Positions 2,692 to 32,851 of a DNA stretch of 32,851 nucleotides are shown here, piece after piece. This DNA is from Folioceros fuciformis (Eukaryota): contig JBNGIO010006237.1 in assembly GCA_049999805.1 (NCBI GenBank), positions 1 to 32,851 on the forward strand, read 5' to 3'. Position numbers and translations under genes: made by a program. The first letter of the stretch is position 1; the number at the start of each line of letters is the position of its first letter. The notes under the pieces are model-generated. The model was not told the origin of the DNA, did not search any database, and was given only the letters and a program-made list of their open reading frames with translations.

Positions 2692-5600
2692 ATGTTCAAA
2701 GCTTTTAACGGCAGCAACTACTCAACATGGAAAACCAAGATGCAACTTCTTCTACGAAATGAAAATGTATGGACCATTGTGGAGGGGACAGAACTCGTAT
2801 CGATACGGGGACCAGCGACCCCTGGTGGTACACAGCCACCTGCTCTCCCTCTAACTAGACCATGTAGTGTTGCAGACTGGGAAGAGCATAACTTAAATGC
2901 TCTCACCCTGATCTCCTTCTATGTGGAAGATTCACACAGTCAGTACTTGGATGAGTGCACCACATCACATGCTGCTTGGCTAGCTCTACATCAATTATGT
3001 GAGACTCATGACTCATCTACTAGGCTGTACCTACGTCGTCGTTTCTACCAGATCAAAATGCAAGAAAATGAAGCAATTTCAGCATTTCTTCTGAGATTCA
3101 AAGAGTCCCTATCACAATTGGCAGCATCAGGAGTTAAAATAGATGAGGATGACAAAGTAGAAACATTGTTGTCCAGTATGCCAGAAAGCTATGATATAGC
3201 CGTCATAAATATAGGAGCGAGACCTACCCTGACTGTAGAAGAGGTGGGAGGTCTCTTATTAAGGGAAGAGTATAGACGCTTAGGAAAGTCAAGTGCCCTT
3301 GGTGGTAGTTCCTCATCTACAGCTTTGTATGCCAGCCGTAGACCCTTCCCTAGGAACAAGCCCTTCCCTAGACCATCCTATGATCATGTTGGAACATCCA
3401 GCAAGCCCCCGGCTAAATCAGAAACCTCAGCAAAGAAAGGTAAATGCAACTATTGTAAATTACCTGGTCACTATGCTCGAGAGTGCAAGAAGAAAAAGTC
3501 AGATGAAGCCTCCAAGTCCCGCATTGGAGTGCATTCAGCCATAGCCTTCATGGCTAGTGAGACTCTTAGTCTCTCCCAACCTGATGTGTGGATCCTAGAT
3601 TCAAGAGCTACCAAATACATGACACCCAACCACTCATGGTTTCAGTCGTATGAGCCCCTCTCTACAGGTGAAAAAGTCTACCTGGGTGATGACACCCCAG
3701 TCCCCATTGTGGGGAGAGGTACAATTCCTATCGCTTTCTATGATGGATCCGAGAGGCTTATTACACATGTCCTGCATGTTCCCGGGTTGAAGCGAAATTT
3801 ACTCTCCGTAGGTCGTATTACAGATGCTGGTTACAATCTATAGTTGCATAGAACTAACTTTACCATACAAGATCCACGAGGTGAATTGGCTCTTACAGTG
3901 AGAAACAAGGTGACTTCTATGTGCTTAGCGGTGCTCCAGGCGGTTCTTCCCCTTCGAACTTGGGCTTCACCCCTGCAGCATTAAAAGCCACAGTCAGTAA
4001 TCCCCTCACCTCTCTTGACTTGTGGCACCGAAGGTTAGGCCATGTGAGTCCTAGCAAACTGCAAGACATGCTTTCCAAGTAGGCAATTATTGGACTCACT
4101 GTCAATCCTTGTGATGCTCCTAGTTTTTGTGAAAGCTGCGTGCATGGCAAGCATCAATGCCGCTCGTTTCCCAAAACTGGAGCACACAGGGCCACCAAGG
4201 TGTTAGAGCTCAAACATAGTGATCTTTGCGGTCCTTTCCAAACTCAATCTATAAGTGGCAAGACCTGGCTTCTCACCTTCATTGATGACTACACTAGGCA
4301 TGTTACTGTCTATTTTCTACGCCACAAGAGTGATGTCCTGGATGCTCTTAAGTCCTATTGCACCCACGTAGAAACACAACATGGGCCAAAGATTCACCTC
4401 CTTTGCACCGACAATGGCACAAAATATTGCAATCATGCATTCCAGGACTATTGCTCAAGGTCGGATATTCAGAGACAAAGTACTGTACCGTATACACCTG
4501 AGCAAAATGGGGTTAGTGAACGCCTCAATCACATGCTTATGGAGGCGGCTCGTACAATGCTTAGGGCAGCCGGGCCTTCCCAATACCCTTTGAGCGGAGG
4601 CCATCTCCACAGCAGCCTACTTGCACAATCGTGTACTAACCAGTGCTATCCCCAACATCACTCCAGAGGAGGCTTGGACGGGTCGTAAGCCTTCTATTTC
4701 TCATCTACGGACCTTTGGCTGCTATGCCTACGCACACATTCCCAAGGATTTGCGCCGCAAACTCGATTCCAAGGCCCTCACCTGTGTGTTGGTAGGCTAC
4801 AATCTAGAATCGAAGGCCTATCGCCTCTATGATCTTGCAGCCCATAAGATCATTGTGGCCAGAGATGTGGTCTTCGATGAATCTCGTTTCTATGGCAGCC
4901 CAATGCCAGTGGGAGCTCTTCCCTCTCGCACCATAAGCCCTCCATACCCTGGCGCTGGTGATCTTTGGAATATCCTCTGCTGCAGGAGCGCTCTCCCGCG
5001 GTGCTATCGGCACATGTGATTCCTGAGGCTGTCCCTGCCCTTGTGGTGCCCCCTCCTGTCCTGCCAACCCCGGTGGTGCAAACCCCAGGCCCGCTGCTTG
5101 CGCTCCTTCCTACTCCAACTATTCCTCCCCAAGGTACCCCTATTTCTCCCTCCTTTCTTGCCTCTTCCTCAGATATTGAGGACTATGGTGGGGCTTGGCC
5201 TCTCTCCCCTACTCGTGCCGTGCCTGTGGTGCTTCCNNNNNNNNNNNNNNNNNNNNNNNNNNNNNNNNNNNNNNNNNNNNNNNNNNNNNNNNNNNNNNNN
5301 NNNNNNNNNNNNNNNNNNNNNNNNNNNNNNNNNNNNGGCTTGGCCTCTCTCCCCTACTCGTGCCGTGCCTGTGGTGCTTCCTTCTGGATTTTCGTTCCGC
5401 CCCGAGCACCCTGTTCCTGGGTTGCCTCGTCTTGTGCCTCCCCAATTTGGTGGGGACCTGGTGGAAAGATTGTTGGCGCCACAAGCAGAAGCATCCCAAT
5501 CTCGGCTACACTCCAAAGGCAGGTAGGAAGTTAAAACCTAAACGTGACCCCGACTTTTCATACCTTTCTTATTTAGCAGATTATGAAGAAACTCCTCTAA

Positions 5601-7212
5601 AAGCATCGGAGGCTCGTGAGTCTGTGACCATGAGAGAGGCATTGTTTGGCCCCACGTCAAAACAGTGGGAGCAAGACATACAGTCAGAGTATGATTCCCT
5701 CATACAGAATGGTACTTGGGAATTAGTTGATCTCCCACCAGGTAGAAAACCCATCATCTGCAAATGGGTGTTCAAGCATAAACATGATTCATTTGAACAG
5801 ATTAGTCGCTATAAGACTAGACTTGTAGCCAAGGGCTATAGCCAGGTTCAAGGGTTAGATTATGAGGACACTTTCTCGCCAGTCATGCGGCTGGCAACTG
5901 TGCGTGTCCTGCTGTCCTTGGCCACCATGCTAGATATGGAAGTCTACCAGCTAGATGTAAAAACTGCATTTTTGCATGGTCATCTAGAGGAAGAAATCTA
6001 CATGATGCAGCCCGAAGGTTACACTTCACCAGGTACTGCTAACAAAGTGTGTAGGTTAAAGAAATCCATCTACGGCTTGAAGCAAGCCCCAAGGTCCTCG
6101 AATGCCAGGATCAATGAGTACTTGCTCAGACACGGGTTTGACAAAAGCTCTGCAAATTCCTCCTTGTACATCAAGCATGAGAATGGTGAATTCATAGCTC
6201 TAGGTCTTTGGGTTGATGACACCATCCTAGTCACTAAGGATCTTGATTTGCTAGCTCGTACCAAGGCACTCCTTCAAGCAAAATTTGACATGACGGATGT
6301 TGGAGCTATTGAGTTTTTCCTAGGCATACAGGTTCTTGGTAACCGAGCTAACAGAACTATGTTTCTAACTCAAAAGCAGTACATTCATTCTATGTTAGAG
6401 AGATTTAACATGTCGAATTGCAATGGTGTGAGCACACCATTAGAGGCCAACAAGAAGCTAATGAAGGCAGACTCTCCCCAGACCGACGAAGAAAAATCGG
6501 CTATGTCTGGTTTTCCTTACCAACCAGTCGTAGGTTCAGTCATGTATGCTAGCGTGTGTACTCGTGTTGATCTTTCCTTTACATCTGGCAAATTGTCTTA
6601 GTTCTCCTCTAACCCAGGGGACGATCACTGCCAGTCAGCCAAGCGGACGCTACGATACATGAAGGAAACTACTGATCACGGACTAAAGTATGGAGGTTTG
6701 TCATCTTCGGATGGTCTCACTCTCACCGGCTTTTGTGATATTGATTATGGCAGTGACCAAGACTCTAGAAAGTCCACCACGGGCTACGTACTCATGCGGG
6801 CTACGTACTCATGCTTGGTGGTGGAGCTGTCGCCTGGTCAAGCAAAAGGTAAGCCACTGTTGCTCAATCGAGCACGGAGGCTGAGTATATTGCAGCAGCA
6901 GAAATGGCCAAGGAGTGCGTTTATATCCGAAGACTTCTTACAGATTTACAACAGCCTCAACCTGGTCCGACTATGATCTATTGTGACAATCAAGCGTGCA
7001 TGGCCATGTCAAAAGACCCAACATACCACGGGCGAACGAAGCACATACAAATCCGATACCACTTTATCCGAGAGATGGTGGCAGCAGAAGAAATCACTCT
7101 CGCATTTTGTCGCTCTGAGCAGAACTTGGCAGATGTTTTGACGAAGTCTCTACCCAAGGAGCAACATTAGAGATGCGTTACAGGATTGGGCGTGACCAAG
7201 CCAGCTGTCTAG
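2692..7212 (+). pseudogene. Disrupted Copia gag-pol polyprotein
   Basis: FNGSNYSTWK gag start, zinc knuckle CNYCKLPGHYAREC, protease WILDSRAT, LWHRRLGH, integrase HSDLCGP/TFIDDY/PEQNGVSER, RT LDVKTAFL...WVDD, RNase H YCDNQA/TKHIQIRYHF. Several stops (e.g. 3841, 7168) and frameshifts, including a 17-bp duplication at 6780-6813. Confidence 0.95.
5237..5336. other. Assembly gap (100 N)
   Basis: N run with about 45 bp duplicated on both sides. Confidence 0.99.
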
Positions 7213-9009: not shown

Positions 9010-11208
9010 CTCCCACTTAGTGACCTAGCATTAGACTTAGGACTTATATTTAGAATACATGAGTGTTAATTATTGCTAAAGAAAGCTTGAGATAGTCTTC
9101 TTAAGCCCATTGATGCGCAGTGCTGCTGGTGCTTGGCCGAGCTGAGGGCTTTGGTCAGGATATCAGCTATCATTTGTTCGGTCAGCCAATATAGGACTTC
9201 AAATTTTCCGTCCTTTACTACTTTCCGGATAAAATGAAATTGTACCTCTATGTGTTTGGTACGCGCATGGTACTTAGGGCTATAGGTAAGCGAGATAGTT
9301 CCCTGGTTGTCATAGTAGAGGGATCTTGGGAGATGTTGAGCTTCTCCTAATTCCGATAGTTGTTGAAGTTGCCATAGTCCTTCTTTACAAGCATGTGTCA
9401 AGGATGCTATATTCTGCTTCCGTGGAGCTGAGAGTAATCACTTGTTGCCGCTTGTTGCTCCAACTCGAGGCTGTGCCTTCGAGCAAATACACATAGCTGC
9501 TTGTGCTCTTCCTAACGTCCTTGTCCCCTGCCCAATTAGCGTCACTATATCCTTGAAGCTGAAGGTGCTCATCTTGCTTAGCAGAGGACTAGTATAGGAG
9601 TCCCATATCCGAAGTAGATCTAAGATATCTAAATATGTGCTTAATAGCCTTCCAATGTTCTGATGTGGGAGATGATAAAAACTAAGAGAGTGCTCCCACT
9701 GGAAAAGCAAGGTCTAGCCTAGTGCAGACCATTAAGTACATAAAGCTTCCAACTGCTGAAGAGTAGGGTACCCCATTCGTGTCAGGATCTGGAGTTGAGT
9801 CTCGATCTGCCTTAATCAGCTTAAGGTTAACTTCCATTGGTGTGGAGATAGGCTTAGAGTCTTGCATCTTGTACTCAGTTAAAACTTCTTGAATATATTT
9901 GGATTGATGTATAAATATACTTCTAGACTCTTTGTGTCTAACTATTTGAATGCCTAAACAATGAGATAAATCCCTGCAATTGGTCATAGCAAAACACTTC
10001 GAAAGCATTGACCTAGTCTCTTCTAGCATGGGTTTGGAGTTAGACATTAGAACAATATCGTCTACATATACAGCAAGTAGAATAAAACAATCATTTGATT
10101 TTCTAATATAGATGTTGCTATCGGAGTCTAGTTTGGTAAACTCTAAGGCCTCTAAGGTTTCATCTAACTTAGAGTACCACTCCATAGCGCTTTGTTTGAG
10201 TTCATAAAGTGCTTTCAATAATTTGCATGCATTGTATAGTCGTCTATTGACCTTAATCCCCTCGAGTATGTCCATATATGTGTGTTATAGGTCGTCGTAT
10301 AAGAAGGCAGTTTTTATATCCAGTTGCAAGAGCTCATAATCATGGTGAGAGGCTAATGCTATAAGGGTCCTAAGTGATGTAATCTTGAGTACCGGGCTGA
10401 ATGTTTCATCATAATCAAACCCGTGTTGTTGAGAATAGCCCTTAGCTACTAACCTTGCCTTATACCTCTCTATGTTGCCGCCAGCGTTTAGCTTGATCTT
10501 AAATGTCCATTTTGAGCCCACTAATTTTCTGTCTGGAGGTAAAGTGGTGAGAGTCCAAGTTTTGTTAGCCCTAAGTGAGTCCAGTTCTGATTTAATAGCA
10601 ATTTTCCAATTTTCGATTTCAGGACATGTAATAGACTCATGATAAGTTGCGAGTACAAATTGATCAATAGCCGCATATAAGCAATGAGCTAAATTCATTT
10701 TAGGGTCCCTCCAATTGGATGGAGAATACCTCCGTATGGTACCTAGACTCGTACGTTGTGATCGTCTGCCGGGCCTGATATCCGTGTGTGTGTTATCCTC
10801 GTCTTGTGAGTTGTGTGACCTGAAAAGAGCACTATGTTCTGAGCCTGAAACACCTCTATGTTGAGGGCGGGAAGATGCATCCATCTTCACGCTCTGGTGT
10901 TGAGGATGGAGGTCTTGGTCCTCCGGGCTGCCAATGCCGAAGGGGTCGTCCTCTGCACTGCTGCTATCTCCTCCTGCAGATTGTGGGCGATGGCCGAGGC
11001 TAGAGGCCGTAGGCTGCGATGCAATTGAGGACGCGAGCTCCTCCTTGTCGAAATCGCCGAAGGTGAAAGAGTCTGCACGTACGTGTTGGTGATGGAGATT
11101 GGGAACTGGTTGGGCAGGCTGTTGTGCTGTAGGTTGGATAGGTTGTGCCTGATTTGGCTGTGGTGTGGGTTGTGCAGGAGGAGCTGTTCCCATGGAAATA
11201 TCGTCGTC

Positions 11209-11218
11209 NNNNNNNNNN
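11209..11218. other. Assembly gap (10 N)
   Basis: N run with about 47 bp duplicated on both sides. Confidence 0.99.
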
Positions 11219-11726
11219 GGTGTGGGTTGTGCAGGAGGAGCTGTTCCCATGGAAATATCGTCGTCGCTATCTGCATGATCTGTAGGGAGGTTGGATGCTC
11301 CCACTGCAACTGGGCCCTACATATCTTCTAAAAAAAGTGACATCTCGTGAATGGGTCACTTTGTGAGTCTGTGGGTGCATGATTTTAAAACCCTTGACGC
11401 CGTTGGTGAAGCCAATAAAGATGTGTTTACTTGCACGATCCTCTAACTTGGTTCTTGTGGCTTTAGGTACATGTGCATACACGGGAGAGCCGAACACTCT
11501 GAGGTTGGATAAATCAGGCTTGTGTCTCGTCCATGCTTCGTAAGGAGTTTGTTGTGGCAAAGCAGCCATTACAGATCTGTTGATGAGGTAAACTGCATGG
11601 GCCATTGCTTCTGGCCAGTATGTCTTGGGCAGGTTAGCATGGATCAGCATGGTCAGTCCATAATCTTGGACTGTTCTGTTCATACGTTGTGACACCCCGT
11701 TCTACTGAGAGGTGTGAGGTGTGGTC

Positions 11727-12119
11727 TGTTGAGATGTCACCCCCGCCATGCTCAAAGGAGGTTAAAACAAGTTAGTTGAAGCAAGATGCAGAATCCCAAA
11801 ACTAAGAGCACTATAACAAGGCTCTTAAACTAAAATAAAAAGGAGAATTACAAAAACAACACTATACAAGTGAAGAGGGAGTTAGACTGCATATACTAAG
11901 TGGGTTCATCCCTTCTTTTATGGACCTATGGGTGGCACTCTCATTTCGTGCCCAATATGGGATAAATGACCCTACAATACTTCTTTTGCCTAACATAGCA
12001 AAGTCTAATAAGCTATATATATATATTAATCATAACCTTAATCACTCTTACCACTAATTAGTACAAACTCAATAAGCTGGATTAGCACTAATTAATATCA
12101 ACATTAATCATGCTTAACA
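11727..12119 (-). mobile_element. Solo LTR (393 bp) nested in the integrase of element 2
   Basis: TGTT...AACA ends with a perfect 5-bp TSD TGGTC (11722-11726 and 12120-12124). Removing it restores INREVTTPHTSQ*NGVSQRMNRT. Strand inferred from a CATAAAA TATA-like site followed by a T-rich tract. Confidence 0.92.
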
Positions 12120-13537
12120 TGGTCACCTCTCTATTAATGCTGTGTGTCTTGCAAAATTGCAGGAAGGCATTGGATCTATATTCTCCTCCTCCATCTGAAC
12201 GGAGTGTTAGGAGTTTCTCTCCTGTTTGCGTTTCAGCCCAAACTGTGTATTCTTGGAAGTAGGTGAGGGCTTGAGATTTGTGCTTTAGCAGATACAGGAT
12301 GGTGAACCTACTCATGTTGTCTATGACCAACATGAAATATAAGTATCCGTGAATGGATCTCTTGAAGGGTCCACAAATGTCTGAGTGTGCTAACTCTAGT
12401 CCTCTTGTGGATCTGCTAGTGGATTTAGTGAAAGGAGTACAGTGGCTCTTCCCAAGTGAGAATACCTCACAGATGCCGAACTCCTCCACATTGGTGCCTT
12501 TAGCTGCGCCTGCTGTAAGCATTTGTTTCATCCTTTGTACCCCCATATGGCCAAGTCTTGCATGCCATAAATATGATTTGTTGTGCTTGTCTACGGTAGA
12601 TAATGAAAGAACAGGGTTATGACTTCTGTCCATGTTGAGATGATACAGGTCATCGTTCTTGAGGTCTCCAGTGGTGATTAGCTCTCCTTGAGGTGTCTCC
12701 ACAACGCAATGGCCTTGTCCAAAACATACATAGCAGCCAGATTCATCAATTTTACGGACTGAAAATAGGTTTTTGGTTAGTCCTAGAACGAGTAGGTCGT
12801 CTAAAATTTGGAGTGTGCTTCCTGGCTTTAGGTTTAAGTCTACTGATCCGTGTCCTTCTATGGTGTGCCTTGTATCGTCACCCAAGCTGACGAAATGAGG
12901 AGGCTTAGAGGGTGTGAAGTCTTTGAAGTATTCTCGATGTGGGGTCATATGCTGTGACGCCCCTGAGTCTATGTACCAGGAATGCTGGCCTTGAGCAGTT
13001 AGGCATGAGGCAACCAGGGCTGATGGTGATGAGTCTTACCAAGTTTTTTGTAGGCATAGGAATGCCTTTGAATGTCTTTTCATGGTTAAAGCTAACTGGC
13101 CTGATGCTTCTCCTCTGTCTCTTCTTTAATTGTTGTTTGCCATGCGTTTCCAGCACTCATCATAAGTATGGCCCGAAATCTTGTAGTAGCCGCATATTTT
13201 TCTCCAACTTGGGTTGAAGCTGCCACGTCCTCTAGAATAAGAACCTTTGCCCTTGTGTTGCTGTTGGCCTCTAAAGTTGGGCCGGCCACGACCTCGAGCT
13301 CTACCTCTACTTGTGAAGTAGGCGGCACTTGACGATTCTCCGCCGAAGGAGGTAGCGAATACTTTTCTCCTTGCTTCTTCTCTCAACATTGCATTGATCA
13401 CTTTGTTAACCGTGAGTGGGGCTGCACCTTGTAAGGACTAGACTACGGAGATCCATGATTCAGGTAGAGTGGACAGCAATATTGCTACCATTAAATCTTC
13501 AAAGATGGTGAAGCCGCATGATTGGAACTTGGCATTA

Positions 13538-14481: not shown

Positions 14482-17220
14482 ATGACGACCTCTCCAACTC
14501 ACAGTAGCCATGTAGATGGTCAATCTTCAGAATCCAATCATGCTCTGTCGACGACTCCTGCAAGCATTGTGCCAGAGCATCCAGAGCACCAAACTCTGAA
14601 CTTGCCTGCGGTGGACAACGATAGCACAAATGACGACATCATCAAGGAGTCGGCTTCTGTTGCTGTGGAGGCTCAGAAAGCAAAGCGAGTGGCCTCCCTG
14701 GACGCATTTCGAGGCCTCACCGTCCTTGTAAATGGGTTCTCACCAGCCAAACTTGCCTTCCGAGCATTTGTACTTTGACAAGTGAACCTGTCTCCTGTTT
14801 CAATTTGTCCCAGAGTGATCAGCTTTCATACGTGCCTCTGAAATGTGAACAATTCCTTGCGACTCTGGTGGTTTGCCAGATCATGATACTGGTGGATGAT
14901 GCCGGGGGCTATTGGCCACAAATAAATCATTCTCCTTGGAATGGAGTTACTCTCGCCGACGTTGTAATGCCCTTCTTCCTTTTCATTGTGGGCGTCGCTA
15001 TAGCTCTTGCTCTCAAGGTACAGCACCATTGTTTTGCAAGGCTGTTCAAAATGTCAACCAGTATTCCGTTTCAGGCCTGTTGACGAGGTCAATTGATCGA
15101 CACGACCGTGGGTGTTGATGTGAAGAGAATTCCGGACAAAGCAAGGGCCTCACGCAAGGTAATCCTGCGCACCATTAAGCTTTTTATCTGGGGGCTCCTG
15201 CTACAAGGTTGATACCCTGGACACAGCCCTCTGCAAGTTGGAGTAGACAAAGGTACTGATCTTTCTCTCAGTGGCATCTGTCCAAACTTCACAAATTTAT
15301 GCGATGATATCAAACAGGGGGCTACTCTCATGCACCCGACGACCTTAGCTATGGAGTGGACATGAAACGCATCCGTTGGATGGGCATCCTGCAGGTATAT
15401 GTGAAAGATGAATTCCCTCCTCCACATCTCGGCTGAGCCTTTCCTTTCCCGACGGTGCTGACTCTAGGCAGGATGGTGTTTCGTCCTTCCAACCAGAGAA
15501 TTGCCATTTCATATTTCGTGGTTGCCGTGATCGAAATTGCAACAACTAGGAGTGGAAACTTCGAACTAAAGAAAGGACCTTTGGCAATATTCAAGCGCTA
15601 CAGATATCACTGGTGAAGTAAAGTCTTTTGAGAAACGTCGTTCCGTGTGCCCTTCAAGACTTGCACACGTGATTCTAAAATGTTCTCCATTTGACATTGC
15701 CATCACAGGTATGCGGCAGCAGTTATACTTGTCGTCTATCTTAGCCTAGAGTATGGACTTTACGTGCCTGATTGGCATTTTGATGCTCAGGGCACCCAAG
15801 ATGATGTCCCCGGTCCAAGACTCCATGTAAACTTGCTACTGACCTGAGCTATCGATCACTGTTGACTTCAAGCATGAAGCTCATGTGAGAAGAAATTGAA
15901 CTCAAGTTTGTGAATCACAGGTGGAGTGTGGGGTGAGGGGACATGTGGGACCTGCCTGTAATGCTGCGGGATATGTAGACCGTGCTATTCAAGGAGTGAA
16001 CCACCTTTACATCTATCCTGAATTGACTCGAACCCAGGTACGATCACAAGAGCTCCAAGCATTTTGCATCAAAACCTTGAGCATATGCAGGTTTCCCATC
16101 TCGAACCATCGTGCTCCAAGTGAGCTGACAATATTGAAGCTATTGTTCAGGCTTGTAGCCTAAGCTCACCCGCTGACGGAGACCCTCCTCCCAATGCCCC
16201 AACCTGGTGTCAAGGCCCATTTGAGCCAGAAGGCATCCTTAGGTTAGGAAACGTCATGTTCATGACTTTATCAGTCTTACAGAGGTACTGAGACCTACGT
16301 CGTATGTACTTGACTTGCTCATGTGTGGCTTTCAGCTCGGTATCAGCTATTCTTAGCTGCCTGCTGGGAATCCATTATGGTCACGTCCTTATCCATTACA
16401 AGGTAAGAAAACCTCATCCATCCAATTGATTTTGTTCCCACCACTAGGAGTCTCCACAAGTTAACATGCTTGCCACCTGCTTTCTGTGTGGGTTTGGCAG
16501 GGCCATGTAAAGAGGCTGATACATTGGGTCGCACCTGCAGTAGCGTTTATACTGTTGGGCACTGTTCTTCACTTCTCCCATGGTGAGTAATGCTTGCTTT
16601 GGCCACCATCTGTGGTTCTTGAGTGGCAACCTAAACACTATGCCTTGCAGCAATACCCATCAACAAGCAGCTGTATAGCGTAAGCTACGTTGCTTTCACT
16701 GGAGGAGCTGCTGGATTGCTGTTCTCAGCCCTCTATATTCTGGTAGGTCATAAATTCTGCACACTAATGTTTTCCAGCTTCACGAGAGAAGAGTGGCCAT
16801 CTTCGTTTAACATGAGGCCCTTGCTCCTGAACCTGTCGGCCAGATTGATTTGTACAGCATCAGAAAGCCAACGGCATGGTTGGAATGGGTGGGCATGAAT
16901 GCCATGCTGGTCTTTGTTCTGGGAGCTCAAGGCGTCCTCTCGGGTTTTGTCAAGGGCTTCTACTTTCATTCTCCGGGCAATGATTTGGTGAAGTCTTATG
17001 GACGATGCAGTGTTTGCCTTTGCTGCCAAGAATCGTAGCGAGACCCTATGAGCTGATACTATCCTGGATGCAGGTGTGGTGGATCCAAAAGCATATCTTT
17101 ATCAAACCGGTGGGGTCGACAAGGGTTGGAATACTCTTGTATGTGCTTTTCGGAGAGATCCTTTTCTGGTGCGTGGTCTCCGCACTCTTGCACTGGAGGG
17201 GATGGTACTGGAAGCTGTGA
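14482..17220 (+). CDS. HGSNAT: Heparan-alpha-glucosaminide N-acetyltransferase-like membrane protein, 13 exons, about 505 aa
   Basis: Exons 14482-14727, 14880-15017, 15126-15207, 15318-15394, 15497-15612, 15709-15826, 15921-16037, 16151-16242, 16336-16402, 16501-16582, 16651-16742, 16844-16987, 17074-17220; all GT-AG and frame-consistent. Motifs RVASLDAFRGLT, HSPWNGVTLADVVMPFFLFIVG, GILQRIA, CNAAGYVDR, PFEPEGILS, PINKQLYS, GMNA, WYWKL. Confidence 0.93.
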
Positions 17221-17305: not shown

Positions 17306-18771
17306 ATGGCCGTGTGTCCTGTGGTTGCCTCGACACCACGTCCTTCCTCCTCTTTTGCCGACGCAGTGTGCACGCTAGCGCAAATCTGTTCACTTCTCTT
17401 CAGCATTCTTCTCACGTTCTGCCTCTCGTGCGGGCAATCGCTTCACCTTGGCGCTCGCAGCGTTGTCCCGTTGGTCAAGTCGGTCTTCAAGGACCGACAA
17501 GGGAGACGGCACAATGATTGTCAACACGAGGCAAATGGGAACTGCAGATCACAGACCCAGACGGAGGGGGAATGGGAAGGACTTGTGGCGGATACGCAGA
17601 AGTTGAGCAGCAATCTGATCTACGAAGGCAGAGTGTGGCACGAGAGGCGGCATCCCGTGGTGCACAAGTTCGAGTACGGGGTTCGATACGCCTTTGTGAA
17701 TTTGGACAATCCTCCGTCCTGGTATCTGTCATCTGCTGCCAAAGAGCATTTGGGCGCTGAGCAGGCTCGCAGCATATCAGGGACGTCGGGACCAGTGTAG
17801 GCATTGTGGTCGCTTTTCCGGGGGAGCTGACTTGAGCTGCTCGACTATGTACCTGGTCCTGGTTGGTAGCCGATGGGTTCCCAGTGCTGAATCTGCTGTT
17901 CGTGGTGCAACAGATACCTGCTTACTTTGCTCAGAAGTGTGGGCTACGAGCAGAATCCCCTCAGTGTCTATTACTGCTACGAAGCAGATGCTGGAGACCT
18001 TGTGAAATGCATAGCCGAGGTATGTCAGTTTGCACTTAAGCAAATATTGTTGTGGCCGCATAGTTTCCTTGGTTGGCTCTGCATTGCATGTTGTCTTGCA
18101 GCTCATTGTTCTTCATTCAGGTGACTAATACACCATGGGGTGAGAGAGTCACCTTTGTATTCGAGCCCAGGGTTGACACAGTAGCCAAACCCCTCCACGT
18201 CAGTCCATTCATGGTATTCCTCATTGCCCTTACATCCAGCTACATTGCAGCTGCGTAGTCTGTTTACAGACATTCAACCCAGCAAGCTGGTGTTGTTTAC
18301 AGGACATGCTAGGGTCATGGCGGATGCTGGCTTCGGCCCCTGGGGAGACCCTACAGCTCACCATCCAGGTGCAGCATCCTCAGCTTGGAGATTACTTCGT
18401 CGCTAACCTGCGAATGAAGAGAGTGGATGACAAGAGCATCGGCAGTCCTGAGGTGTTTCTGTGGCTCATGCCTCACAAGGTTGCCCTGTGGATCTACTGG
18501 CAGGTGCGTAAATTGTACACTCTGGCCTGTCTCACCTCCTGACCGTCCAGTGGTCTTTCTCATTGCCATCAACTGTGGCTGTTTTGGCTGCCAGGCAATC
18601 ATGCTGCTGTGGAAAGGGCTGAAGGTGCAGCCGCATCCCAAGGACGTCGATGGCTCAGCTTATCGCAACCGGGCTCGAGCAAGAGATGCTGAACTGCGAT
18701 CCAGTGAAAGCCAAGAACCGACAGCCCGTCTGTTCAGATGGAGAGAGGCTGCAGGTTGGCCTTGGACATGA
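17306..18771 (+). CDS. DUF1365 family protein, 5 exons, about 355 aa
   Basis: Exons 17306-17796, 17914-18019, 18121-18213, 18303-18503, 18595-18771. Motifs YEGRVWHERRHPVVHKFEY, GYEQNPLSVYYCY, AEVTNTPWGER, KPLHVSPFM, IYWQAIMLLWKG..HP. Hydrophobic N-terminal segment; start codon inferred. Confidence 0.9.
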
Positions 18772-19013
18772 TCACTGGGATCCTTGGACTCCTTTCCTTA
18801 TGTGCAAGCCGGATTCTTATTATTCGTTCTTGGGCTTTCCACGTTCCTCTTGTTCAATTGTAAAGAGATTCCCTTCGTTGCACGGCAAGTTCGTTCCTGG
18901 CTTCGAGATGGCAGAATATTCTAGGAAATGTCGTTCGGCTTCCCGGATATCGTTAGGGCTTATCCGCACGGTGGATTAGAAGTTGAGGTGCGGTAGTGGA
19001 ACATCGTCTCGCC

Positions 19014-19818
19014 ATGGAGCGCTTGCTGGCTTACGATAGTGTCATCACTCCCTTGGGGCCACTGATCTTGGGAGCATCCGCCACAGCCCTGCACTCTGCC
19101 GCGTTCGGCACGCTGCCGACTGGTGGTCTGACCTCGCCCACAGATGGCCATCCGGTGCTTGCTTTGGTAGGTGTCAGGCAGGCTGTGTGTGATGTTGTTG
19201 CTGGGGTGGGAGTTTTCTTCACGTTTTAATCGTCTGCGTGAGAGCACGTCTGCGGTTGCACGTAAGGTGTGGCCGGTTGATTTGACACGGGAGTTGAAAG
19301 GGAAGCATCATGGTGGTTGTCCCCTCAAGCTCATAGTGTAGCTGGTGCAGCTAAGTTGTAGCCTACTTCTAGCGTTGAGGTGTCGGCCCTTCACATTAGG
19401 GCAAGGGGAAAGTAGTGAGCCTGCATTGATTTGATGTCTTGTGGTTTTGAGACAGGCCAAGCAGCAGGTTCAGGAATATTTCAATGGGCAGCGGAAAGAG
19501 TTTGACATACCGCTGTGCTTGGAAGGCACCCCGTTCCAGAAGAAGGTGTGGTCTGTGCTACAGCGGATAGAGTTTGGCCAGCGAATCTCGTACCAGGAGC
19601 AGGCAAAGATGATGGGAGAACCAAGCAAAAGTAGGGCCGTTGGAGGAGCGAATGGTAAAAATCCTATCTGCCTCATCGTGCCTTGCCACCGTGTTGTAAG
19701 AAAGGAAGCAGGTAACCTTGGAGGCTATGGCTACGGCCTGCACGCCAAACAGTATTTGCTAGATTGGGAATCTGGTATATGCGGTAAGGGGAGGGGAGCA
19801 GCGTCTGAAGGAAGCTGA
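19014..19818 (+). CDS. MGMT: Methylated-DNA--protein-cysteine (O6-methylguanine-DNA) methyltransferase, 2 exons, 171 aa
   Basis: Exon 1 19014-19166 (YDSVITPLGPLILGAS, N-terminal domain), phase-0 GT-AG intron, exon 2 19456-19818 with GTPFQKKVW, ISY, RAVGGANGKNP, IVPCHRVV, LGGY and KQYLLDWE. Confidence 0.93.
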
Positions 19819-21936
19819 GAGCCTCGGAGGTGCGAGTCCGACGTGTGAGCTGACTAGGCTCTACCGTGGGAGGACATGATCCAGGCGGGAAAGGTGGATC
19901 GACTACGATCTCCAACAAAAGGCCTGGAGAGCAACAGCTTTGATGTTGGGCGCGCAGTGAACAGTTAGTTAGCCTAATTTAGTGTGCGTTTGCAGCTGCA
20001 GCGGTCGCAGGCTGCAGATTGGACGTGCTGGTTGGGTGGACATTCTGGTAGGGTCAAAGAGAGCCAAGTCTCGTAGATGAGGCGAAGGAGCTGGCCGTCT
20101 GACTGATACAGAAAGGTGTAGATCTCATCACAATCAGGTGCTGTTATTGTGGTGAGTGGATAGTTTCTGTCGGATGTAGCCTGTCAAGGTAGTGCCTGCA
20201 CCCCCCTGGAACACGAGGGGTACGAAGTCCCTTGATCTGGGGAACGCGTGATCTCTCGTGTTATTTCGGCGTCATAGGCGCTGCCTACTGGGAGGCCTCC
20301 AGTTGTCGGCGTTGGCAGTCAGGGCACATCAAATGCTTTTATGACAAGGCTTTCTAGTATCTACACTGGCATCCACGGCTCCTCCGAGTGGCACCAAACT
20401 GGAGATTTCAGGTCTGGTGGTGCTCGCTCGTGGAGCCTGCAGGTAGAAAGAGGCGGAGTCGGATGCTCCGTACCACGGCGGAAGTGGACAGTGGGAGCGA
20501 ATTCTGGACATGGTCGGGACAGGCGTCTACCTGGGGAGTTGCATCCTCCATGAACCAAAAGTCCCGTCTCCGATGTTTAATGTATCTAAATTATGAATCT
20601 CCTGTTCGCATCTAGGGCTGTCCTGGGCCCGGCTTCATTCTTACGCGGAACTCGTTCTCGGGGTCATCTGCCACGCGGGGTCATAGCCAATTTCGGAGTT
20701 GGCACTGCGCCTCCGTCTCATCCGACCGGCGTGTGAAAGCACACACCTCATCTCTTGTTGCGAATGGCCCTTACCCGAAGGCTCTTTTGTGGTCCTTCCG
20801 CTTCACACCGCGACGCTCCTCCTCGTTTCCGTGCGGGACACTGGAAGGCAAGCCGACTTCGTAACCCCCGCGACTATGTCACGCGTCCAGACGGCTTGCT
20901 CGGTTCTCGTGAGTGTTTCTGCACTAGCCTGCTTTTCACCATGTGCCCCCAACCTAGTCAAAAATAATGACGTGCTGCTGCCCCCTGGGCCACACCTCAT
21001 CTCATTCATCTTCCTCCCCATCGTCACCTTTCTCTTGTGGTCCAAGGTACCTTGGTTTCCATTCTACATTTTCTTTGTGAGGAGGAGCACAGCCATCCAA
21101 GATGGGTTCTGATATTCTAAAATCATTACAAGAAAAGGAGATAGTATATTCTACACAACTCAAGTTTCAACTACCACACACTTCTGGACGCTCACCCAAA
21201 TTTTTTAGAGGAAAAGTTTCATGCACACTTGCTAAGTGTTTGTTGTGACGCCTGAATCGTGATCCTTGGACTCAAGTCCTCTTCAGTCATGGGTGAAGTA
21301 TTAAAACGTATGTCAATGCAGTAAGGGTGTATAAAACTGTGAAATTAACTTAAGCCTCACAACACTGAAAGAAAGGGGCTTCTTATTCTAAGATCTTCTT
21401 CTCCTTCGTCGTCTTCTTTGCAACATTCAACTCAGAGCCTTCGCTACCTGCCGTGGTGGTGGTGCGAAGCATTTGTAGCTGCTGTACTCTTGGTGCTTGG
21501 GGAAAATCGCCCCAGTACGGCGTTAGGATTGGCTGACGCGTGAGGCCACATGTGACTTGACGCGCTCACCGGGATGGGCGTCCAGTAAGGTGGGTAAGGG
21601 TGGGAAGGTGAGCCTATGTACACTGTATGTACATATGTAGGAAGCAAAGGATAGGCCAAAACGCGGCCCGGGTTTGTCCGCAAGCGCCATCTTGTAGAGA
21701 GGAGGAGGACAGTGTTGGAAGTCACCAGCTACCTACTCACCCTTGTAATGAGGCCCACTTCTGGCATGGAACAGCCCAAGTGTCCCAAGCGTACACGGGC
21801 GTGGGAACGGGGTTTTCGACTCACCTCACAGCCCACAGCTGCTCGCATTTAATATGGCGTCTAAACCACAACCATCCAAACGGAAAGACGCAGGTGAGGC
21901 AAATCCGAGGTGCCGTTCATTTTAACACGGTGCCTT

Positions 21937-21942: not shown

Positions 21943-22340
21943 GACGATGCACTCGCCGCGTGGCTCGCGTTCTGAGTTCGCGCTTCCCTTCCACAGTGCA
22001 GACTCATATCTGTGCTCTGCTCCGGGAGGAACACTGATACTTCTCCTTGTTGGTGCCACCCCCGCCCCGGCTTCACACCTGTGGCGAATGTTTCGAAGAA
22101 TGTTCGGGCCGGAGCGGGCGCGGTAATGCGGGCATTGAGGCTGGAAGTACTGGGGGACAGGGAACGGGTCATGCTGCCTGCTGCCTGACCCTCGAGCCCG
22201 CTTGCACACGGGCAGATGGCGTTCTGGGACACCAGGGAACGGGCTCCATGAGCTCCTGGAAGGTTGAGAAGGACGGGTTCTTGGTTTAGGCTCGCGGGCG
22301 TTTGCTCTCTGCTTGCCTTTCCCTTGCCTGGCGCTGCTTC

Positions 22341-25012
22341 ATGGCCCCGGAGTACGTCAGCCGCGTCCACGCTTGGCAGTCCGGCAGCACGGTGAGTGGA
22401 AACGGGGAGGAAGCGCATTCTCGCACGCCGGCGGAAGCCGGAGGTGCTGCGCTCCGGAGGCCTTCTTGCGAGGATGCGGGGGACGGAAGTGGAGCTGGCG
22501 GCGCACACAAAGCTGGCGGCGATGCCAATGCTTGGGAAGACAGTCCCAGGTCTCACCTGGACCCCCGGCGCCGGTCGGGAGAAGACGACCAGGCTGGCAG
22601 TGAAGACTTGAATCCGTCTGAGCTGCAGCCTGCGTTACCTTCACCGGAGTTGGGCTCTTTATGTGTCGATGGAATTGGCGGTCGCGGATCCCTTGGGCCG
22701 CGCCTTCGAATTGAGTGTGCGCTTCCCACGGCGTTCCCGGCGTTACGAACGGCCACCGCGGAAGATCAACAGCCGCTGCAAGCTATTGAGGACCAGGCTC
22801 TCTCTTCTTCGCAGAAAAGCTCCTCTGCGTCGTCCAGTTCCTGCCAGGCGGGGGAAGCAGAGAAGTCCATTACTTCAGCGCACAAGCCGAGCAACAGCCA
22901 CAGCTTCTTTTCCGCCAGGGAGTGGCATCGTTATCTCCACCTGCCCTCGCCGGCTTCCCCGGAAGACATGTCCAGTGTTGGAGCCCCCTGGCATGTGGAC
23001 TTGGACCAGCTCGAGATTGGTGATGTAGTGGCTACCGGATCATTTGGTATGGTGAACATGGCAATCTATAAGGGTCAGCAGGTCGCAGTTAAATCACTCC
23101 TCATACCTGAAGCTTCGTCCGTCAAAGAACTGAACAAGCTCAAGGCCGGATTCAGGCAGGAAATTGGCTTGTGGTACACGCTGCGTCATCCCAACATTGT
23201 GCAGGTACACTCGTTCGTATCCATGCCCTTCATCTGCAGTCTGCACCAGTTGCAGAGTCGCTGACTCGCATCCATGTCTCGTTCATTCGAATGTGAGTAC
23301 TTACGAGGAGCACGCAATCCGTCTAGAGAAACCCTCCTTCCTCGTTGGACCTGCCAGGAGGCAGCTGAGTCAGTAAATGTGTGCTTGGATGTGCTCCTGT
23401 TGGTCTTTGTGCGTCACCTGGATAACAACGTCCGGAACGGAGTGCAGTCGGTGAGTACGAAGTGCTAGCCTTGGTCAGAGATGTTTTTCGGCAGGACGCT
23501 CCCCTGGTTTAGGTACCTAGGCATCTTGTGTGTGTCTATGGACAGGTCAATGTCAAGTGCTTTGGATTGGAGGTCATGTTCGTGATCTTTACTCCAAGGA
23601 GCAATCGGTTATCGAGACCACATGATGGACAATCTTGGACAAGTTACCGTTCCTCTTGATTCAAAGTTGGCTGTCATGTGTCGCAGTTCATCGGGGCATC
23701 CATAAACCCACCAAAGTGGGCCATCGTGACGGAATACCTTGAAGGAGGATCCCTGAAAGCTTTTTTGATGAAACAACAGAAGAAGAAGTTGCCCGTGCCG
23801 AGAATTGTTGAAATGGCTCTGGACATAGCAAGGTAGAGCTTCTGCCATGTAGCCTTCCTCATGTCGGGTCGTTCTTTTTATGAATTCTTTTGAGAGCTCC
23901 TTTTCGCTGTTGCTGATGGTAATTTGGTCAATGCTCGCAGGGGTATGGAGTATCTCCATCAGCACAACATAATGCATCGGGACTTAAAATCTGCGAACCT
24001 GCTTCTGGACAGCCAAGGGGTCGTCAAGGTGGCTGACTTTGGGCTTGCAAGGTTGGAAGCTGAGGATCCTGGCAACATGACTGCAGAGACCGGCACAATC
24101 AGATGGATGGCTCCAGAGGTGGGCTATGAATTCATATGCTGCTCATCTGTGAGGCACGCCATGGAACAATGTTTGTGGTGATTACATGGCTAATGAGCCG
24201 TGATGTTTCTTACCAGGTGATAGGCCATAAGCCTTACACACGCAAAATCGACGTATACAGTTTTGGAATTGTGCTCTGGGAGCTCTGCACTTGTCTTGTT
24301 CCATTCGAAGGGCTGGCCTTCGTCCAGCTGGCACATGCAGTGGCGAATGATGTAAGGATACTCTTAAGGGTCTTGCTATCCCAGCTGCGTGCGTCTGGAG
24401 AAATGGAATGCTTGCTTCCTTGAGCAGTAAGGCAGGAGGCAGGAGGATTCCTATGTATAATCTTTGGGCTTTCTCATTGCATCTTTTAATTCTGTCCATA
24501 TGCCTGTCAGAATCATCGGCCGCCAACATCTGCTTGTGACCCTTCATTGGCGTCCATAATGTCTAAGTGTTGGCACCCAGACCCTTCAAACAGGCCAGAT
24601 TTTGTGGAGGTAGTGCAGATGCTCGAAGCCGTGGAGTTGGCAGGGACACAAAACATCAAGTCGATGCCATCGACTACTAAGGAAACTGTTGGCGTGACCA
24701 GGTCAGTATCATCAGCCATAGAGAGCAGAGTATGATTGATCAACACAATCATGTCGTATGTGCAATGTGTTCCTCGCGTGGGTTAGGTCACTTCCTCATT
24801 CGGCTTTGATAGCAATGTTCATGACCTACATTGGTTGTTTCAGGTCAAGTAGCAAGTCAGCCGTAGACCCTTACAGCAGACAGACTGTCAGCATGAGAGG
24901 TGGTCAAGCCATTACTCGACCACGGGCTGTATATGCATCATCGGTGGTAAACACCGAGGAGGATAACCAGGACAAGATGAATGTGCCAGGCTGTCAGTGT
25001 ATTATTCTCTGA
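22341..25012 (+). CDS. Raf-like (group C, STY/HT1-type) Ser/Thr/Tyr protein kinase, 6 exons, about 560 aa
   Basis: Exons 22341-23204, 23687-23832, 23941-24118, 24217-24351, 24511-24701, 24844-25012. Motifs [62 protein letters not shown]. Start codon and last exon are less certain; without the last splice the CDS ends at 24735. Confidence 0.9.
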
Positions 25013-28563: not shown

Positions 28564-30531
28564 ATGACATCCTTAGCAAACGTCATGTTCAATATCAAGA
28601 AGTTAGATGGTACTAACTTCCTGTTCTGGAAAGAACAAGCGAATAATGTTCTAGTGCAGAAGAAGCAAATCAAGCAGATAAAGTTGCTAGGAGTGAAACC
28701 TGTTAGCATGACTCAGGATGAGTGGCAGGATCTAGATGAGCTTGCTAGGTCTACCATCATGCTAACATTGTCGAAGTCGGTCTACTTCAATGTGAAAGAC
28801 AAGACCACAAGTTATGAGCTATGGCAGAAGTTGTGTGACCTGTAAAAGAAGCAAAGTGCAGCTTCTCAGGTGTACAAGTTGGAACAGCTAGTGAACTTGA
28901 AGATGAAGGAAGGGACGAGGATGTCCGATCATCTGAACTAGTTCAATACGATTTTCAGCCATCTCTCATCTCAAGGTATCTCCTTCCCAGATTCCGTGAG
29001 AGCTATGTTTCTGTTGGTCACATTACTAGACAGCTGGGACACCTTTCGTACAGCTCTGAGTAATTCCGCTCCTGCCAGTGGTCTTACCGTTGTAAATGTA
29101 GAAGGTAGCCTGTTAAGAGAGGAGGTGAACAAGAAGCATATGGAACCTTCGAAAGGTTCCAATGCCCTCATGGTGAGAGGAAGGTCCACTTCAAAGGGGA
29201 AGTACAAGGAGCAAAGTCGTTCCCGTAGTAAGTCTCGTAGTCGTAACAATGTTGAGTGTTACCACTGTCACAAGAAGGGTCACATCAAGAAGGACTGCGA
29301 GAAGTTGAAGAAGGACAAAGGAAAGGAGAAGAAGCATATCGACAACAAGGCAAGCTCGACTAGCAAGCCTGACGAGGTGAATTCTGTTGACGATGGAGAT
29401 GTTCTTACCTCTTCTTCCTTCGATTCTGCACAACTGACAGCCGTGGAGAGTCAATTATTCTCTAATTGGATAATTGACTATGGAGCATCTTTCCATGTTA
29501 CTCCGCATAGAGAGTGGTTTAGCACGTATGATGCTACTAGAAAAGGATGTGTTCGGCTTGGAAATAACTACGCATGCGAGATTGCAGGCGTTGGTGATGT
29601 GCAGCTGAAGTTCGACAATGGATCTTCATTCGTACTGAAGGATGTTAGGCATGTTTTGAAGTTGGCCAAAAGCATGATTAGCGCAGGGCAGTTGGATGAT
29701 GCTGGCTACCAGTGTTGGTTTGGAGATCGTTCTTGGAAGATCTCCAAAGGTTCTCTTGTGTTAGCTCGTGGATCGAAGTGTGGCACTTTGTACTCACTTC
29801 AGGTAACGACTATCAAGGATCATGTGATTTGTGTAACGGAACAGCCAAGCGTTTCCTTGTGGCATAGTTAGTTAGGACATATGTCTCAAAAAGGAATGAA
29901 AATCTTATCTTGTTTTGGTTACGTCCCTGTTTATGACTTCTTCGATTTCTCCGTGTTTGAGCACTGTTTGTATGGGAAATAAACGAAGTCACCACATGGA
30001 GCAAGAGGTAAACTCAAAAGTAAACCTCTTGAGTTGGTTCACAGTGATGTTTCTGGACCTATGCCCACTATATCGTTAGGCGGTGCATCTTATTTTGTCA
30101 CTTTCATTGATGACTTCTCACGCAAGGTGTGGGTTTATCCTTTGAGGAAAAAGGATGATATTCTAATAGTGTTTCAGAAATTCGTCACCCTTGTGGAGAA
30201 TCAGTCTGGCCTCCGACTGAAGTGTCTAAGGACACACAATGGGGGAGAGTATGTTTCAAAGGCTTTCCAGTCATTCTGTGATTCCAAGGGAATCAAAAGA
30301 GAATTGACTACACCGTATACTCCTCCTCAGAATGGTGTGGCTGGACGGATGAACAGGACCATCCAGGAGAGGATGCGTAGTTTGTTGTCAAATTCTGCAT
30401 TGCCTAACGGATTTTGGGCAGAAGCAGTAGTTACTGCGGTGCATCTTATTAACAGATCTCCTAATAGGGCTGTGGATGAACAGGTTCCAGAGGAGATGTG
30501 GTCTGGAAAGAAGCCGTCATACAAGCATCTA
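28564..30531 (+). pseudogene. Disrupted Copia gag-PR-IN (Tnt1-like)
   Basis: KLDGTNFLFWK, CYHCHKKGHIKKDC, WIIDYGASFH, LWHS*LGH, VHSDVSGP, TFIDDFSR, PPQNGVAGRMNRT; several in-frame stops. Confidence 0.92.
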
Positions 30532-31135
30532 TGAGAGACAAAGCACACTTACTGTAAAAGCTGACAATATGGCGCTGATACTCACGGTAGTGCTCTATCC
30601 TTACTCGTACCATCTTCAGGTGGGTGTAAGAGCACTTATACCACAAAGGGGTACAAGGAATAGCAAAAGAACCAAGGCTCACAATCTTGGTTTCTTCACC
30701 AGAGTGTGTCGGAACTGGAAATATCATCGGCACAGCAAGCCTATGGTCAGAATCAGCATACGCAAACTCACCAGCTTTGAAGTGAAGCTTGTCACTGTGA
30801 TCGCTCCAAAGAGGCCCCTCTTTAAGGGGAGCTGTCTTACACGCAGCGCCAGCCTTTGTCTTACAGGCTGAAGCATCTGATGATCGCCGCTGATCCAGAA
30901 AAGCCTTGGTGGTGCTGCGTGGTCTTCCTCGCAAATGCCTCCCGCTGAGGTCATCTTGAGGAGCAGGAGGAGGCATCTTTGTTGATCCTTGCTGTTGAGA
31001 GGAGGTGGCTGTTCTGGTCGGCTTGCTCACAAACCGCCCTAGCTTGTTACGATGGCAGACGCGGAGCTTTGCAGGAGGGGAGTCAGTGGCTGAGGACAAC
31101 ATCTTGAGATCAGAGATCCTACGCCCCAAGAGCAT
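30461..31135 (-). CDS. Hypothetical basic protein with an AT-hook-like RGRPR motif, possibly truncated
   Basis: Open frame of 241 codons (ATG at 31135 or 31102). Contains RNKLGRFVSK and HLRGRPRSTTK; the last codons run into the antisense strand of the element 3 integrase. Confidence 0.35.
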   Translation of the reverse strand: MLLGRRISDLKMLSSATDSPPAKLRVCHRNKLGRFVSKPTRTATSSQQQGSTKMPPPAPQDDLSGRHLRGRPRSTTKAFLDQRRSSDASACKTKAGAACKTAPLKEGPLWSDHSDKLHFKAGEFAYADSDHRLAVPMIFPVPTHSGEETKIVSLGSFAIPCTPLWYKCSYTHLKMVRVRIEHYREYQRHIVSFYSKCALSLIDACMTASFQTTSPLEPVHPQPY

Positions 31136-32032: not shown

Positions 32033-32851
32033 TTAAGGTGATTTGGACTTAATATCTAAATTGCCCAGACTTTTCATATGTTTATTATGTAATTCCCGAC
32101 TGAGGGATTTGGTTAATAAATCGGATGAGTTATCATGAGTTGGGATATAACTGATATCTATTGTTTTATTTTCTAACATTTCTCTTATGTAGTGATACTC
32201 AACAGCTATATGTTTAGTTCTAGAGTGAAAAACAGGATTTCGTGCAAGTGCAATGGCACCCTGGCTATCACTAAACAAAGATGTAGGCTTAAGTTGAGGA
32301 TGATGAAGTTCACTCAAAACCAACCTAGACCACACTATGTCTTTAGAAACTGAGGTTACTACCCTGTACTTAGATTCAGTACTTGACAAAGCTATAGTAG
32401 GTTGTTTCTTACTTGACCAGGATATTGGTGCTCCTCCCAAGAGTAATACATACCCCAATACAGATTTTCGTGTGTCGGGGTCACCAGCATAGTCGGCATC
32501 AGCATATGCCGTTAGAGTTAATGTGTTGATAGATGGTGTATGCTTCAACATCAGTCCTATGTACATAGTGCCTTTAAGGTATCTAAATATACACTTAACA
32601 AACATCCAGTGCTCATGTCCAGGATTCTCCAAGAATTGTGAGCAAACTGACTTCAAAAGATATATCTGGTCTCGTAAAATTACATAAAAATATTAGGGTG
32701 CCAACAGCATGCCGATATGGAACTATTGACATTTCTAGCTTTTCTTCAGCTGTTTTGGGACTCATATCTAAGTTAAGCCTAACACCACTTGCAAAAGGTG
32801 TGGATGCAGGCTTTGCATCCTCAAGTCCAAATTTAGCTAAACTCTCCTTAA
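32033..32851 (-). mobile_element. 3' end of pol (RT C-terminus and RNase H) of a fourth Copia element, running off the window
   Basis: FRYLKGT, YADADYAGD, SWSSKKQ, LFSDSQGAIAL, RTKHIAVEYHYIRE, SDLLTK; candidate PPT AGGGGCAGA at 32008-32000. Confidence 0.92.

Follow-up and report, generated by a model that had tools for sequence, protein, structure and literature searches.

A two-exon plant gene for a predicted Ogt-type O6-alkylguanine-DNA alkyltransferase, probably acquired by an ancient bacterial transfer

The closest described relatives of the gene reported here belong to a bryophyte gene family. The passages on this family that accompany the Anthoceros angustus genome (Zhang et al. 2020; PMC7027989) present 'DNA methyltransferase' genes that combine PF02870 and PF01035 as a bacterial transfer common to hornworts, liverworts and mosses, and name Actinobacteria as the donor. 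The accompanying tree (Fig. 4d of that paper), which also samples green algae, metazoans, stramenopiles, fungi and archaea, clusters the bryophyte sequences with the putative bacterial donor. Section 14 of a review (PMC4617055) describes O6-alkylguanine-DNA alkyltransferase (AGT) as absent from plants, and a passage of PMC10779285 reports no peptide sequence homologues in higher plants together with an AGT homologue in Chlamydomonas reinhardtii. Here we analysed a 32,851-nucleotide (nt) stretch of DNA (hereafter the window) for which an original prediction had proposed an intact, intron-containing AGT gene at 19014-19818, an activity that it rightly gave as described to be missing from Arabidopsis and other flowering plants. 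All coordinates are in window numbering, and residues are numbered along the full-length protein of 171 amino acids (aa) unless stated otherwise.

We consider it likely that this locus represents a plant nuclear gene of two exons which is expressed, encodes a 171-aa alkyltransferase of the bacterial Ogt type, with predicted activity, derives from one ancient bacterial transfer and was inherited vertically thereafter. The original prediction overestimated the novelty of such a gene: the family had been described in 2020 as transferred from bacteria and present in three bryophyte groups (PMC7027989), and the discovery of the family and of its bacterial origin is not new. In our literature search, PF02870 was found in PMC7027989 only. 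The main text of Yue et al. 2012 (PMC3493653) contains none of the terms 'methyltransferase', 'methylguanine' or 'alkyl'; its supplements may list the family. The repair literature searched made no mention of a bryophyte Ogt-type gene. The present analysis adds direct evidence of splicing, an intron site common to plant-type loci, high support for one plant clade and a donor that present sampling leaves between Actinobacteria and other groups.

Structure and splicing of the two-exon gene

The coding sequence (CDS) starts at 19014 with the ATG of gccATGG. It is preceded, 28-30 nt 5' of this ATG, by a stop in the same frame (18984-18986), and the frame is open from 18987 to 19229. Joining the two exons by their coordinates (Table 1) gives a CDS of 516 nt that encodes 171 aa with one stop, at its end, in agreement with the predicted intact two-exon frame.

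For a splice check, contigs of three sequencing runs, X1, X2 and X3, were aligned to 18300-20600; the stretch is present in three of the eight runs listed. A 1355-nt contig of X3 covers 18971-19165 and 19455-20600, skipping exactly the 289-nt GT..AG intron. Around the 19166/19456 junction this contig has 195 letters on the shorter side, and 19455-20600 corresponds to contig positions 15-1160. The junction does not occur in the contigs of the DNA runs X1 and X2 over 18300-20600; these two runs represent one sample, possibly the source of the assembly. A second GT..AG joint, at 18501-18591 in the upstream gene, is likewise found in X3 contigs but not in those of X1 or X2. Because two intron-shaped joints occur in X3 only, X3 is very likely transcript-derived, and the predicted 19166/19456 junction is very likely used. 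The junction check proposed in the original prediction was thereby answered by a contig whose RNA label is a guess.

The same contig gives minimal limits for the untranslated regions (UTRs) on both sides of the CDS (Table 1). Within 19819-20614 it contains neither AATAAA nor ATTAAA, and the transcript may either have a long 3' UTR or overlap with another transcript.

Protein architecture and comparison with known alkyltransferases

Exon 2 matches PF01035 over exon 2 residues 26-106 with 100.4 bits (cut-off 27; expectation value (E) 5e-29), and the NCBIfam model TIGR00589 'ogt' with 104.6 bits (cut-off 46.4). Upstream of this region, exon 2 residues 2-20 match profile positions 51-69 of the 71 positions of PF02870, with 20.9 bits (cut-off 21). 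Since the start of exon 2 matches only the end of PF02870, the intron splits the N-terminal domain. Exon 1 by itself has no Pfam match; a hidden Markov model of the N-terminal regions of 59 bacterial homologues gives it 18.3 bits, compared with a maximum of 7.6 among 2000 shuffled versions of exon 1. PF02870 is also present in most full-length plant orthologues in a precomputed domain list. We conclude that the predicted protein contains the N-terminal ribonuclease-like domain (PF02870), divided between both exons. The window protein carries no N-terminal extension; liverwort gene models have 40-90 additional N-terminal residues.

All the residues that mark the family are present, namely Tyr97 (ISY), Arg111 (SRAVG), Asn120 (GKNP), Cys128 (PCHR) and Glu156 (DWES), and each of the motifs named in the original prediction (ISY, RAVG, KNP, PCHR and the distal Glu) was found. 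In all 14 plant-type sequences compared, Y46, R60, N69, P76, C77, H78 and R79 (exon 2 numbering) are unchanged, and so is Glu156. As judged from these motifs, the locus encodes a 171-aa O6-alkylguanine-DNA alkyltransferase, predicted to be of the Cys type. The gene is real and probably functional, with a predicted catalytic activity and a putative role in vivo.

The roles of the Tyr, the Arg finger, the Asn hinge and the Glu are those described for the human and Escherichia coli enzymes. By analogy with bacterial and human enzymes, the C-terminal helix-turn-helix would bind the minor groove of DNA. Arg111 would insert into the helix and take the place of the flipped base, and Tyr97 would help to rotate the damaged base out; together, Tyr97 and Asn120 would shape the pocket. 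A network of Glu156 and His129 would activate Cys128, which would accept the alkyl group from O6-alkylguanine, and possibly from O4-alkylthymine too, in a single irreversible and self-inactivating step.

A comparison with solved structures matched 45 AGT chains. The best match, 4wxd/4bhb (165 aa), which we take to be Mycobacterium tuberculosis Ogt, scored 98 bits (E 5.9e-27) over 104 residues, followed by the C-terminal domain of Ada (1sfe, 73.5 bits) and then by 1eh6 (68.7 bits), presumably human MGMT/AGT. This difference between the best bacterial structure and 1eh6 bears out the bacterial Ogt-like character given in the original prediction. An AlphaFold2 model of exon 2, based on a 14-row alignment, has a mean predicted local distance difference test (pLDDT) score of 66.5 and a predicted template modelling (pTM) score of 0.58, too weak for a fold search.

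Bacterial Ogt resembles the window protein in size (165-171 aa versus 171 aa) and in the absence of the Ada N-terminal part, and the PCHR motif, Arg finger, Asn hinge and Tyr align between the two. The window protein matches profile positions 64-166 of 171 in the E. coli Ogt model NF007626, with 88.1 bits against an equivalog cut-off of 192, and is thus not an E. coli-type Ogt equivalog. Unlike bacterial Ogt genes, the window gene is located in a plant chromosome and split by a spliceosomal intron. Against the Ada model NF011964, the window protein matches only profile positions 247-348 of 354, at 88 bits versus a cut-off of 345. An identity as Ada was rejected, because the N-terminal part with the methylphosphotriester and AraC-type regulator functions is absent and the protein is only 171 aa long; the short two-domain form without an Ada activator is as originally described. 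Alkyltransferase-like (ATL) proteins have the PF01035 fold and the base-flipping residues in common with the window protein. They lack the acceptor Cys and read PWHR or PAHR in place of the active-site motif. An ATL identity was likewise rejected, since the window motif is PCHR, and the earlier reading of the protein as a true Cys alkyltransferase holds.

The structure that we assume to be human MGMT (1eh6) is alike in its catalytic domain and presumed suicide mechanism, with exon 2 residues 28-114 corresponding to chain residues 96-182, whereas the overall likeness is weaker than that to the best bacterial structure. The third residue past the Asn hinge is Cys in the window protein and, by our assumption, Pro140 in the human enzyme, where it is presumably important for O6-benzylguanine binding. 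Because Cys replaces this position, labelling with O6-benzylguanine may fail. The motif NPIC, with its Cys three residues past the Asn hinge, was also considered as a plant-specific signature and was rejected, because 34 of 215 non-plant homologues have Cys there; the others include Pro (58), Ser (52), Ala (36) and Gly (18). As far as these counts indicate, the Cys found at this position in all plant members is an ordinary bacterial variant.

With the bryophyte family of Zhang et al. 2020, as presented in the passages of PMC7027989 on these genes, the window gene has in common the two-domain architecture, the plant host, the bacterial affinity and the presumed role in DNA repair. The donor given there is Actinobacteria, a donor that is not recovered in the present tree (see below), and the shared intron position and spliced contig reported here find no mention in those passages.

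Relatives, shared intron position and origin

Homologues were searched with exon 2 as the query against a database of 5.8 billion proteins and, in a second search, with the Riccia sorocarpa protein as the query; 120 matches were listed for each. The exon 2 matches listed have 52-67% identity and include one plant name (Riccia sorocarpa) and eight bacterial names. Outside plants, the highest identities (55-63%) belong to bacterial or metagenomic proteins, and no bacterial sequence among the matches listed exceeds 63%. The Riccia query returned, at the top, Riccia sorocarpa, R. fluitans, Marchantia paleacea and Calypogeia fissa, then unnamed proteins with plant-like N-termini, and six further listed rows with bacterial organism names. 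Among the 120 + 120 matches listed, no non-plant eukaryote is named, in a database that includes EukProt entries. The orthologues comprise four named liverworts and two unnamed plant-type groups. Five short frames (P0131, P0140, P0141, P0164 and P0160) contain exon 2 only and diverge just before the 'AK' that opens this exon. The ESM Atlas yielded bacterial PF01035 clusters only and was uninformative on origin.

A metagenome scan identified six plant-type loci. Two of these (L081 and L082) are uninterrupted and resemble complementary DNA, while the other four (L083-L086) are genomic, lie on contigs of 4-23 kilobases and consist of two exons with GT..AG introns of 375-382 nt. In L083-L086, exon 1 ends with ...PVL[A/G]L followed by GT, and exon 2 begins with AKEQ after CAG. 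The joined form in L082 reads ...PVLAL-AKEQ, and the window has PVLAL before and AKQQ after its intron, which places the phase-0 intron at an identical site. Because the same phase-0 site is present in a lineage with ~60% protein identity to the window, the intron position indicates that the intron is old and that the gene has been inherited vertically within plants.

L083-L086 represent three closely related variants, as L083 and L084 do not differ within the gene. Before the Arg finger these loci read GEHGKAR; other plant sequences read GEPGKAR or GEPTKAR. The frame is intact in the window, in L081-L086, in the four named liverworts and in the unnamed groups. Among L083-L086, 7-8 of 504 CDS sites differ, a smaller share than in the intron (12-16 of 375 aligned sites).

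Phylogenetic analysis placed the plant sequences together. In a quick tree of 150 rows, the 14 plant rows lie on one branch, with a Shimodaira-Hasegawa-like approximate likelihood ratio test (SH-aLRT) value of 91. A careful tree of 77 rows was computed from 170 columns in IQ-TREE under LG+C20+F+G4 by posterior mean site frequency (PMSF), with a bootstrap that was not fully settled; it contains 17 plant rows, and all other rows are bacterial or unnamed metagenome proteins. The 17 plant rows, including the four named liverworts, form one clade (support 100/97). Six liverwort-type rows group together (99/98), and the window groups with an unnamed plant group (100/85). The plant clade joins 20 unnamed metagenome proteins at a node with support 91/92 that is not starred, and the relations of the plant clade to particular bacteria are weakly supported. 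The window gene is thus a plant nuclear gene in one clade with bryophyte orthologues, apart from bacteria.

The donor within bacteria may be Actinobacteria or another group. Constraining the plants to group with the eight named Actinomycetota rows gave a tree 25 log-likelihood units worse, which was not rejected by the approximately unbiased (AU) test (p-AU 0.233; LG+G4, fast searches). With the present sampling, an actinobacterial affinity is therefore neither recovered nor rejected. The nearest rows in the tree are unnamed metagenome proteins, and the donor may be other than Actinobacteria.

These data can be arranged into a scenario in which one ancient transfer from bacteria to plants would have preceded the split of several bryophyte-type lineages, the intron would have been gained early and vertical inheritance would have followed, the window gene being a putative member of the hornwort, liverwort and moss family of Zhang et al. 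2020. The scores lean bacterial in a comparison that rests on structures and listed matches. Because our trees hold no non-plant eukaryotic AGT, the transfer step itself rests on PMC7027989. The original prediction had offered either a transfer or an ancestral gene lost in seed plants; we favour transfer, as the passages of PMC7027989 on the family support, and keep ancestral retention as a rival. It had also named, as evidence against transfer and against novelty, a spread of orthologues across green plants that group with other eukaryotic MGMTs. Orthologues proved to be widespread in bryophyte-type plants, but the tree of PMC7027989 places them apart from other eukaryotic MGMTs.

Several points weigh against this scenario. 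X3 is dated 2017 and its RNA label is a guess, with no confirmed RNA run listed for the stretch; moreover, contigs reveal no strand, expression level or true transcript ends. The plant matches listed include named liverworts only, and no named moss or hornwort. An actinobacterial donor was not recovered, the eight named Actinomycetota rows being placed away from the plants. The trees are without algal, animal or fungal AGT, such that transfer and vertical descent are not separable by the trees. The bacterial genome rows (L001-L080) were drawn by plant-derived motifs and hence are biased: NP[IV]C occurs in 77 of 79 loci with a readable motif in this motif-drawn sample, compared with the much lower proportion with Cys in the unbiased lists (34 of 215). 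Between the main variants among L083-L086, 1 change is synonymous and 6-7 are nonsynonymous, counts that do not show purifying selection and are too small to tell neutrality from constraint. Finally, no activity, biochemical or genetic study of any plant AGT was found in the literature searched.

Part of this evidence also suits a gene that was never transferred. The ancestor of the green lineage, or of eukaryotes, could already have had an AGT that bryophyte-type plants retained and vascular or seed plants lost; its bacterial look would then stem from slow evolution, or else from animal and fungal MGMTs having diverged fast. Any long-resident gene, whatever its origin, could show the intron and the monophyly of the plant sequences, the C. 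reinhardtii homologue reported in PMC10779285 indicates that AGT does occur in the green lineage, and trees without eukaryotic comparators in which plant-to-bacteria relations are weakly supported leave room for such a history. The published tree, however, includes algae and other eukaryotes and puts the bryophytes with the bacterial donor (PMC7027989, Fig. 4d). Together with the lack of any named non-plant eukaryote among the matches listed, and with the higher score of the best bacterial structure than of 1eh6, this makes vertical retention unlikely in our view.

Whether the product still acts mainly in repair is a separate matter. The protein could keep the AGT signature and serve as a damage sensor or regulator, or be a weakly constrained relic, and the substitution counts among L083-L086 given above, the moderate model of exon 2 (mean pLDDT as above) and the absence of functional data in the literature searched all suit such a role. 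The catalytic residues are nevertheless invariant from liverworts to the window, frames are intact in the window and in L081-L086, the gene is represented by a spliced, transcript-like contig, and the counts for L083-L086 are too few to differ from either neutrality or constraint; we regard a loss of the repair role as quite improbable. A bacterial contaminant, or an assembly chimera within a plant scaffold, would account for best non-plant relatives that are bacterial or metagenomic. Against this, the GT..AG intron breaks the frame and is removed in the X3 contig, which we count as already refuting it. A DNA contig of X1, possibly the source sample and not independent, spans 18300-20600 unbroken, the intron position is identical in unrelated metagenome contigs, the flanks hold plant genes and copia elements, and no bacterial sequence listed comes closer than the 63% given above. 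We give contamination or chimerism a negligible chance; the spliced contig, the germin-like gene and the copia elements sustain the original argument from intron and plant neighbours. An ancient bacterial transfer followed by vertical inheritance is thus the reading that we retain.

Genomic neighbourhood and meaning for plant DNA repair

To judge from its genes and mobile elements (Table 1), the window is plant nuclear DNA. The germin-like gene has many named land plants among its 120 relatives listed; the best relative is unnamed (57%), and the best named one is from Diphasiastrum complanatum, a lycophyte (49%), which marks the source as a land plant with no close annotated relative in that database. 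Its GC content at third codon positions (GC3) is 0.885, versus 0.593 for the alkyltransferase gene.

Upstream of the alkyltransferase gene lies a gene of the DUF1365 family, a mainly bacterial family. Its 91-nt GT..AG intron (18501-18591) is spliced in a 2894-nt X3 contig that ends at 18841, and its transcript ends ~130 base pairs 5' of the start of the alkyltransferase transcript on the same strand. A joint transfer of the two genes was considered and rejected, as no DUF1365 gene was found in the flanks of L081-L086 or beside ogt in 160 loci. Gag, reverse transcriptase and integrase remains of copia type occupy 2635-6601, 9682-13035 and 28942-30534. Runs of N at 5237-5336 and 11209-11218 fall inside two of the copia remnants. 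The weak kinase and DUF5009-like exons are probably parts of multi-exon plant genes. An Rfam scan of the window gave 0 matches.

Table 1 Features of the window. Strand: +, forward; -, reverse. LTR, long terminal repeat.
Feature	Position	Strand	Details
Minimal 5' UTR	18971-19013	+	From the first base of the spliced X3 contig up to the ATG; ATG-free; contains the in-frame stop 18984-18986
Exon 1, CDS	19014-19166	+	51 codons; most of the N-terminal (Methyltransf_1N-like) domain; aligns with N-termini of liverwort orthologues
Spliceosomal intron	19167-19455	+	289 nt, GT..AG, phase 0, between Leu51 and Ala52; starts GTAGGT, ends ...GAGACAG
Exon 2, CDS	19456-19818	+	120 codons plus TGA (19816-19818); end of the N-terminal domain and whole DNA-binding/catalytic domain
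Helix-turn-helix/recognition stretch	19591-19665	+	From Tyr97 (ISY) via Arg111 (SRAVG) to the Asn120 hinge (GKNP)
Active-site motif Pro-Cys-His-Arg	19681-19692	+	Residues 127-130; Cys128 (TGC, 19684-19686) is the predicted alkyl acceptor
3' UTR, at least 782 nt	19819-20600	+	Covered by the X3 contig, which extends ~14 letters beyond 20600 (to 20614)
DUF1365-family gene	17620-18841	+	Two separate frames match PF07103, at profile positions 1-34 and 149-223
Germin-like gene, single exon	206-955	-	Cupin_1, E 3.5e-33
Copia-type LTR remnant	2635-6976	+	Gag, Pol beta-barrel, integrase and RVT_2 among the remnants; broken frames
Copia-type LTR remnant	9066-13035	-	Same element type; broken frames
Weak DUF5009-like exon	14634-15083	+	E 1.5e-4, below gathering score
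Weak protein-kinase exon	22290-23264	+	Pkinase, E 3.8e-5, below gathering score; after a long GC-rich low-complexity frame
Copia-type LTR remnant	28942-30534	+	Same element type; broken frames
Copia-like frame	32033-32692	-	Identified by eye only; no Pfam match

Because the best named relatives of the germin-like neighbour are from a lycophyte, and the AGT gene forms a separate branch beside an unnamed plant group, a wider distribution of the family can be envisaged. If the source plant lay outside the three bryophyte groups, the family would not be restricted to bryophytes, and the transfer would have taken place in the land-plant ancestor, with later loss towards seed plants; we hold this to be distinctly unlikely.

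Repair reviews still state that plants are without direct reversal of O6-alkylguanine. Bryophyte-type plants carry an intact, spliced and conserved Ogt-type gene. The gene bears on whether bryophytes handle damage of the type caused by ethyl methanesulfonate (EMS) or N-methyl-N-nitrosourea (MNU) unlike seed plants, and hence on protocols for bryophyte mutagenesis. It also concerns the part that genes acquired from bacteria played in the early history of land plants.

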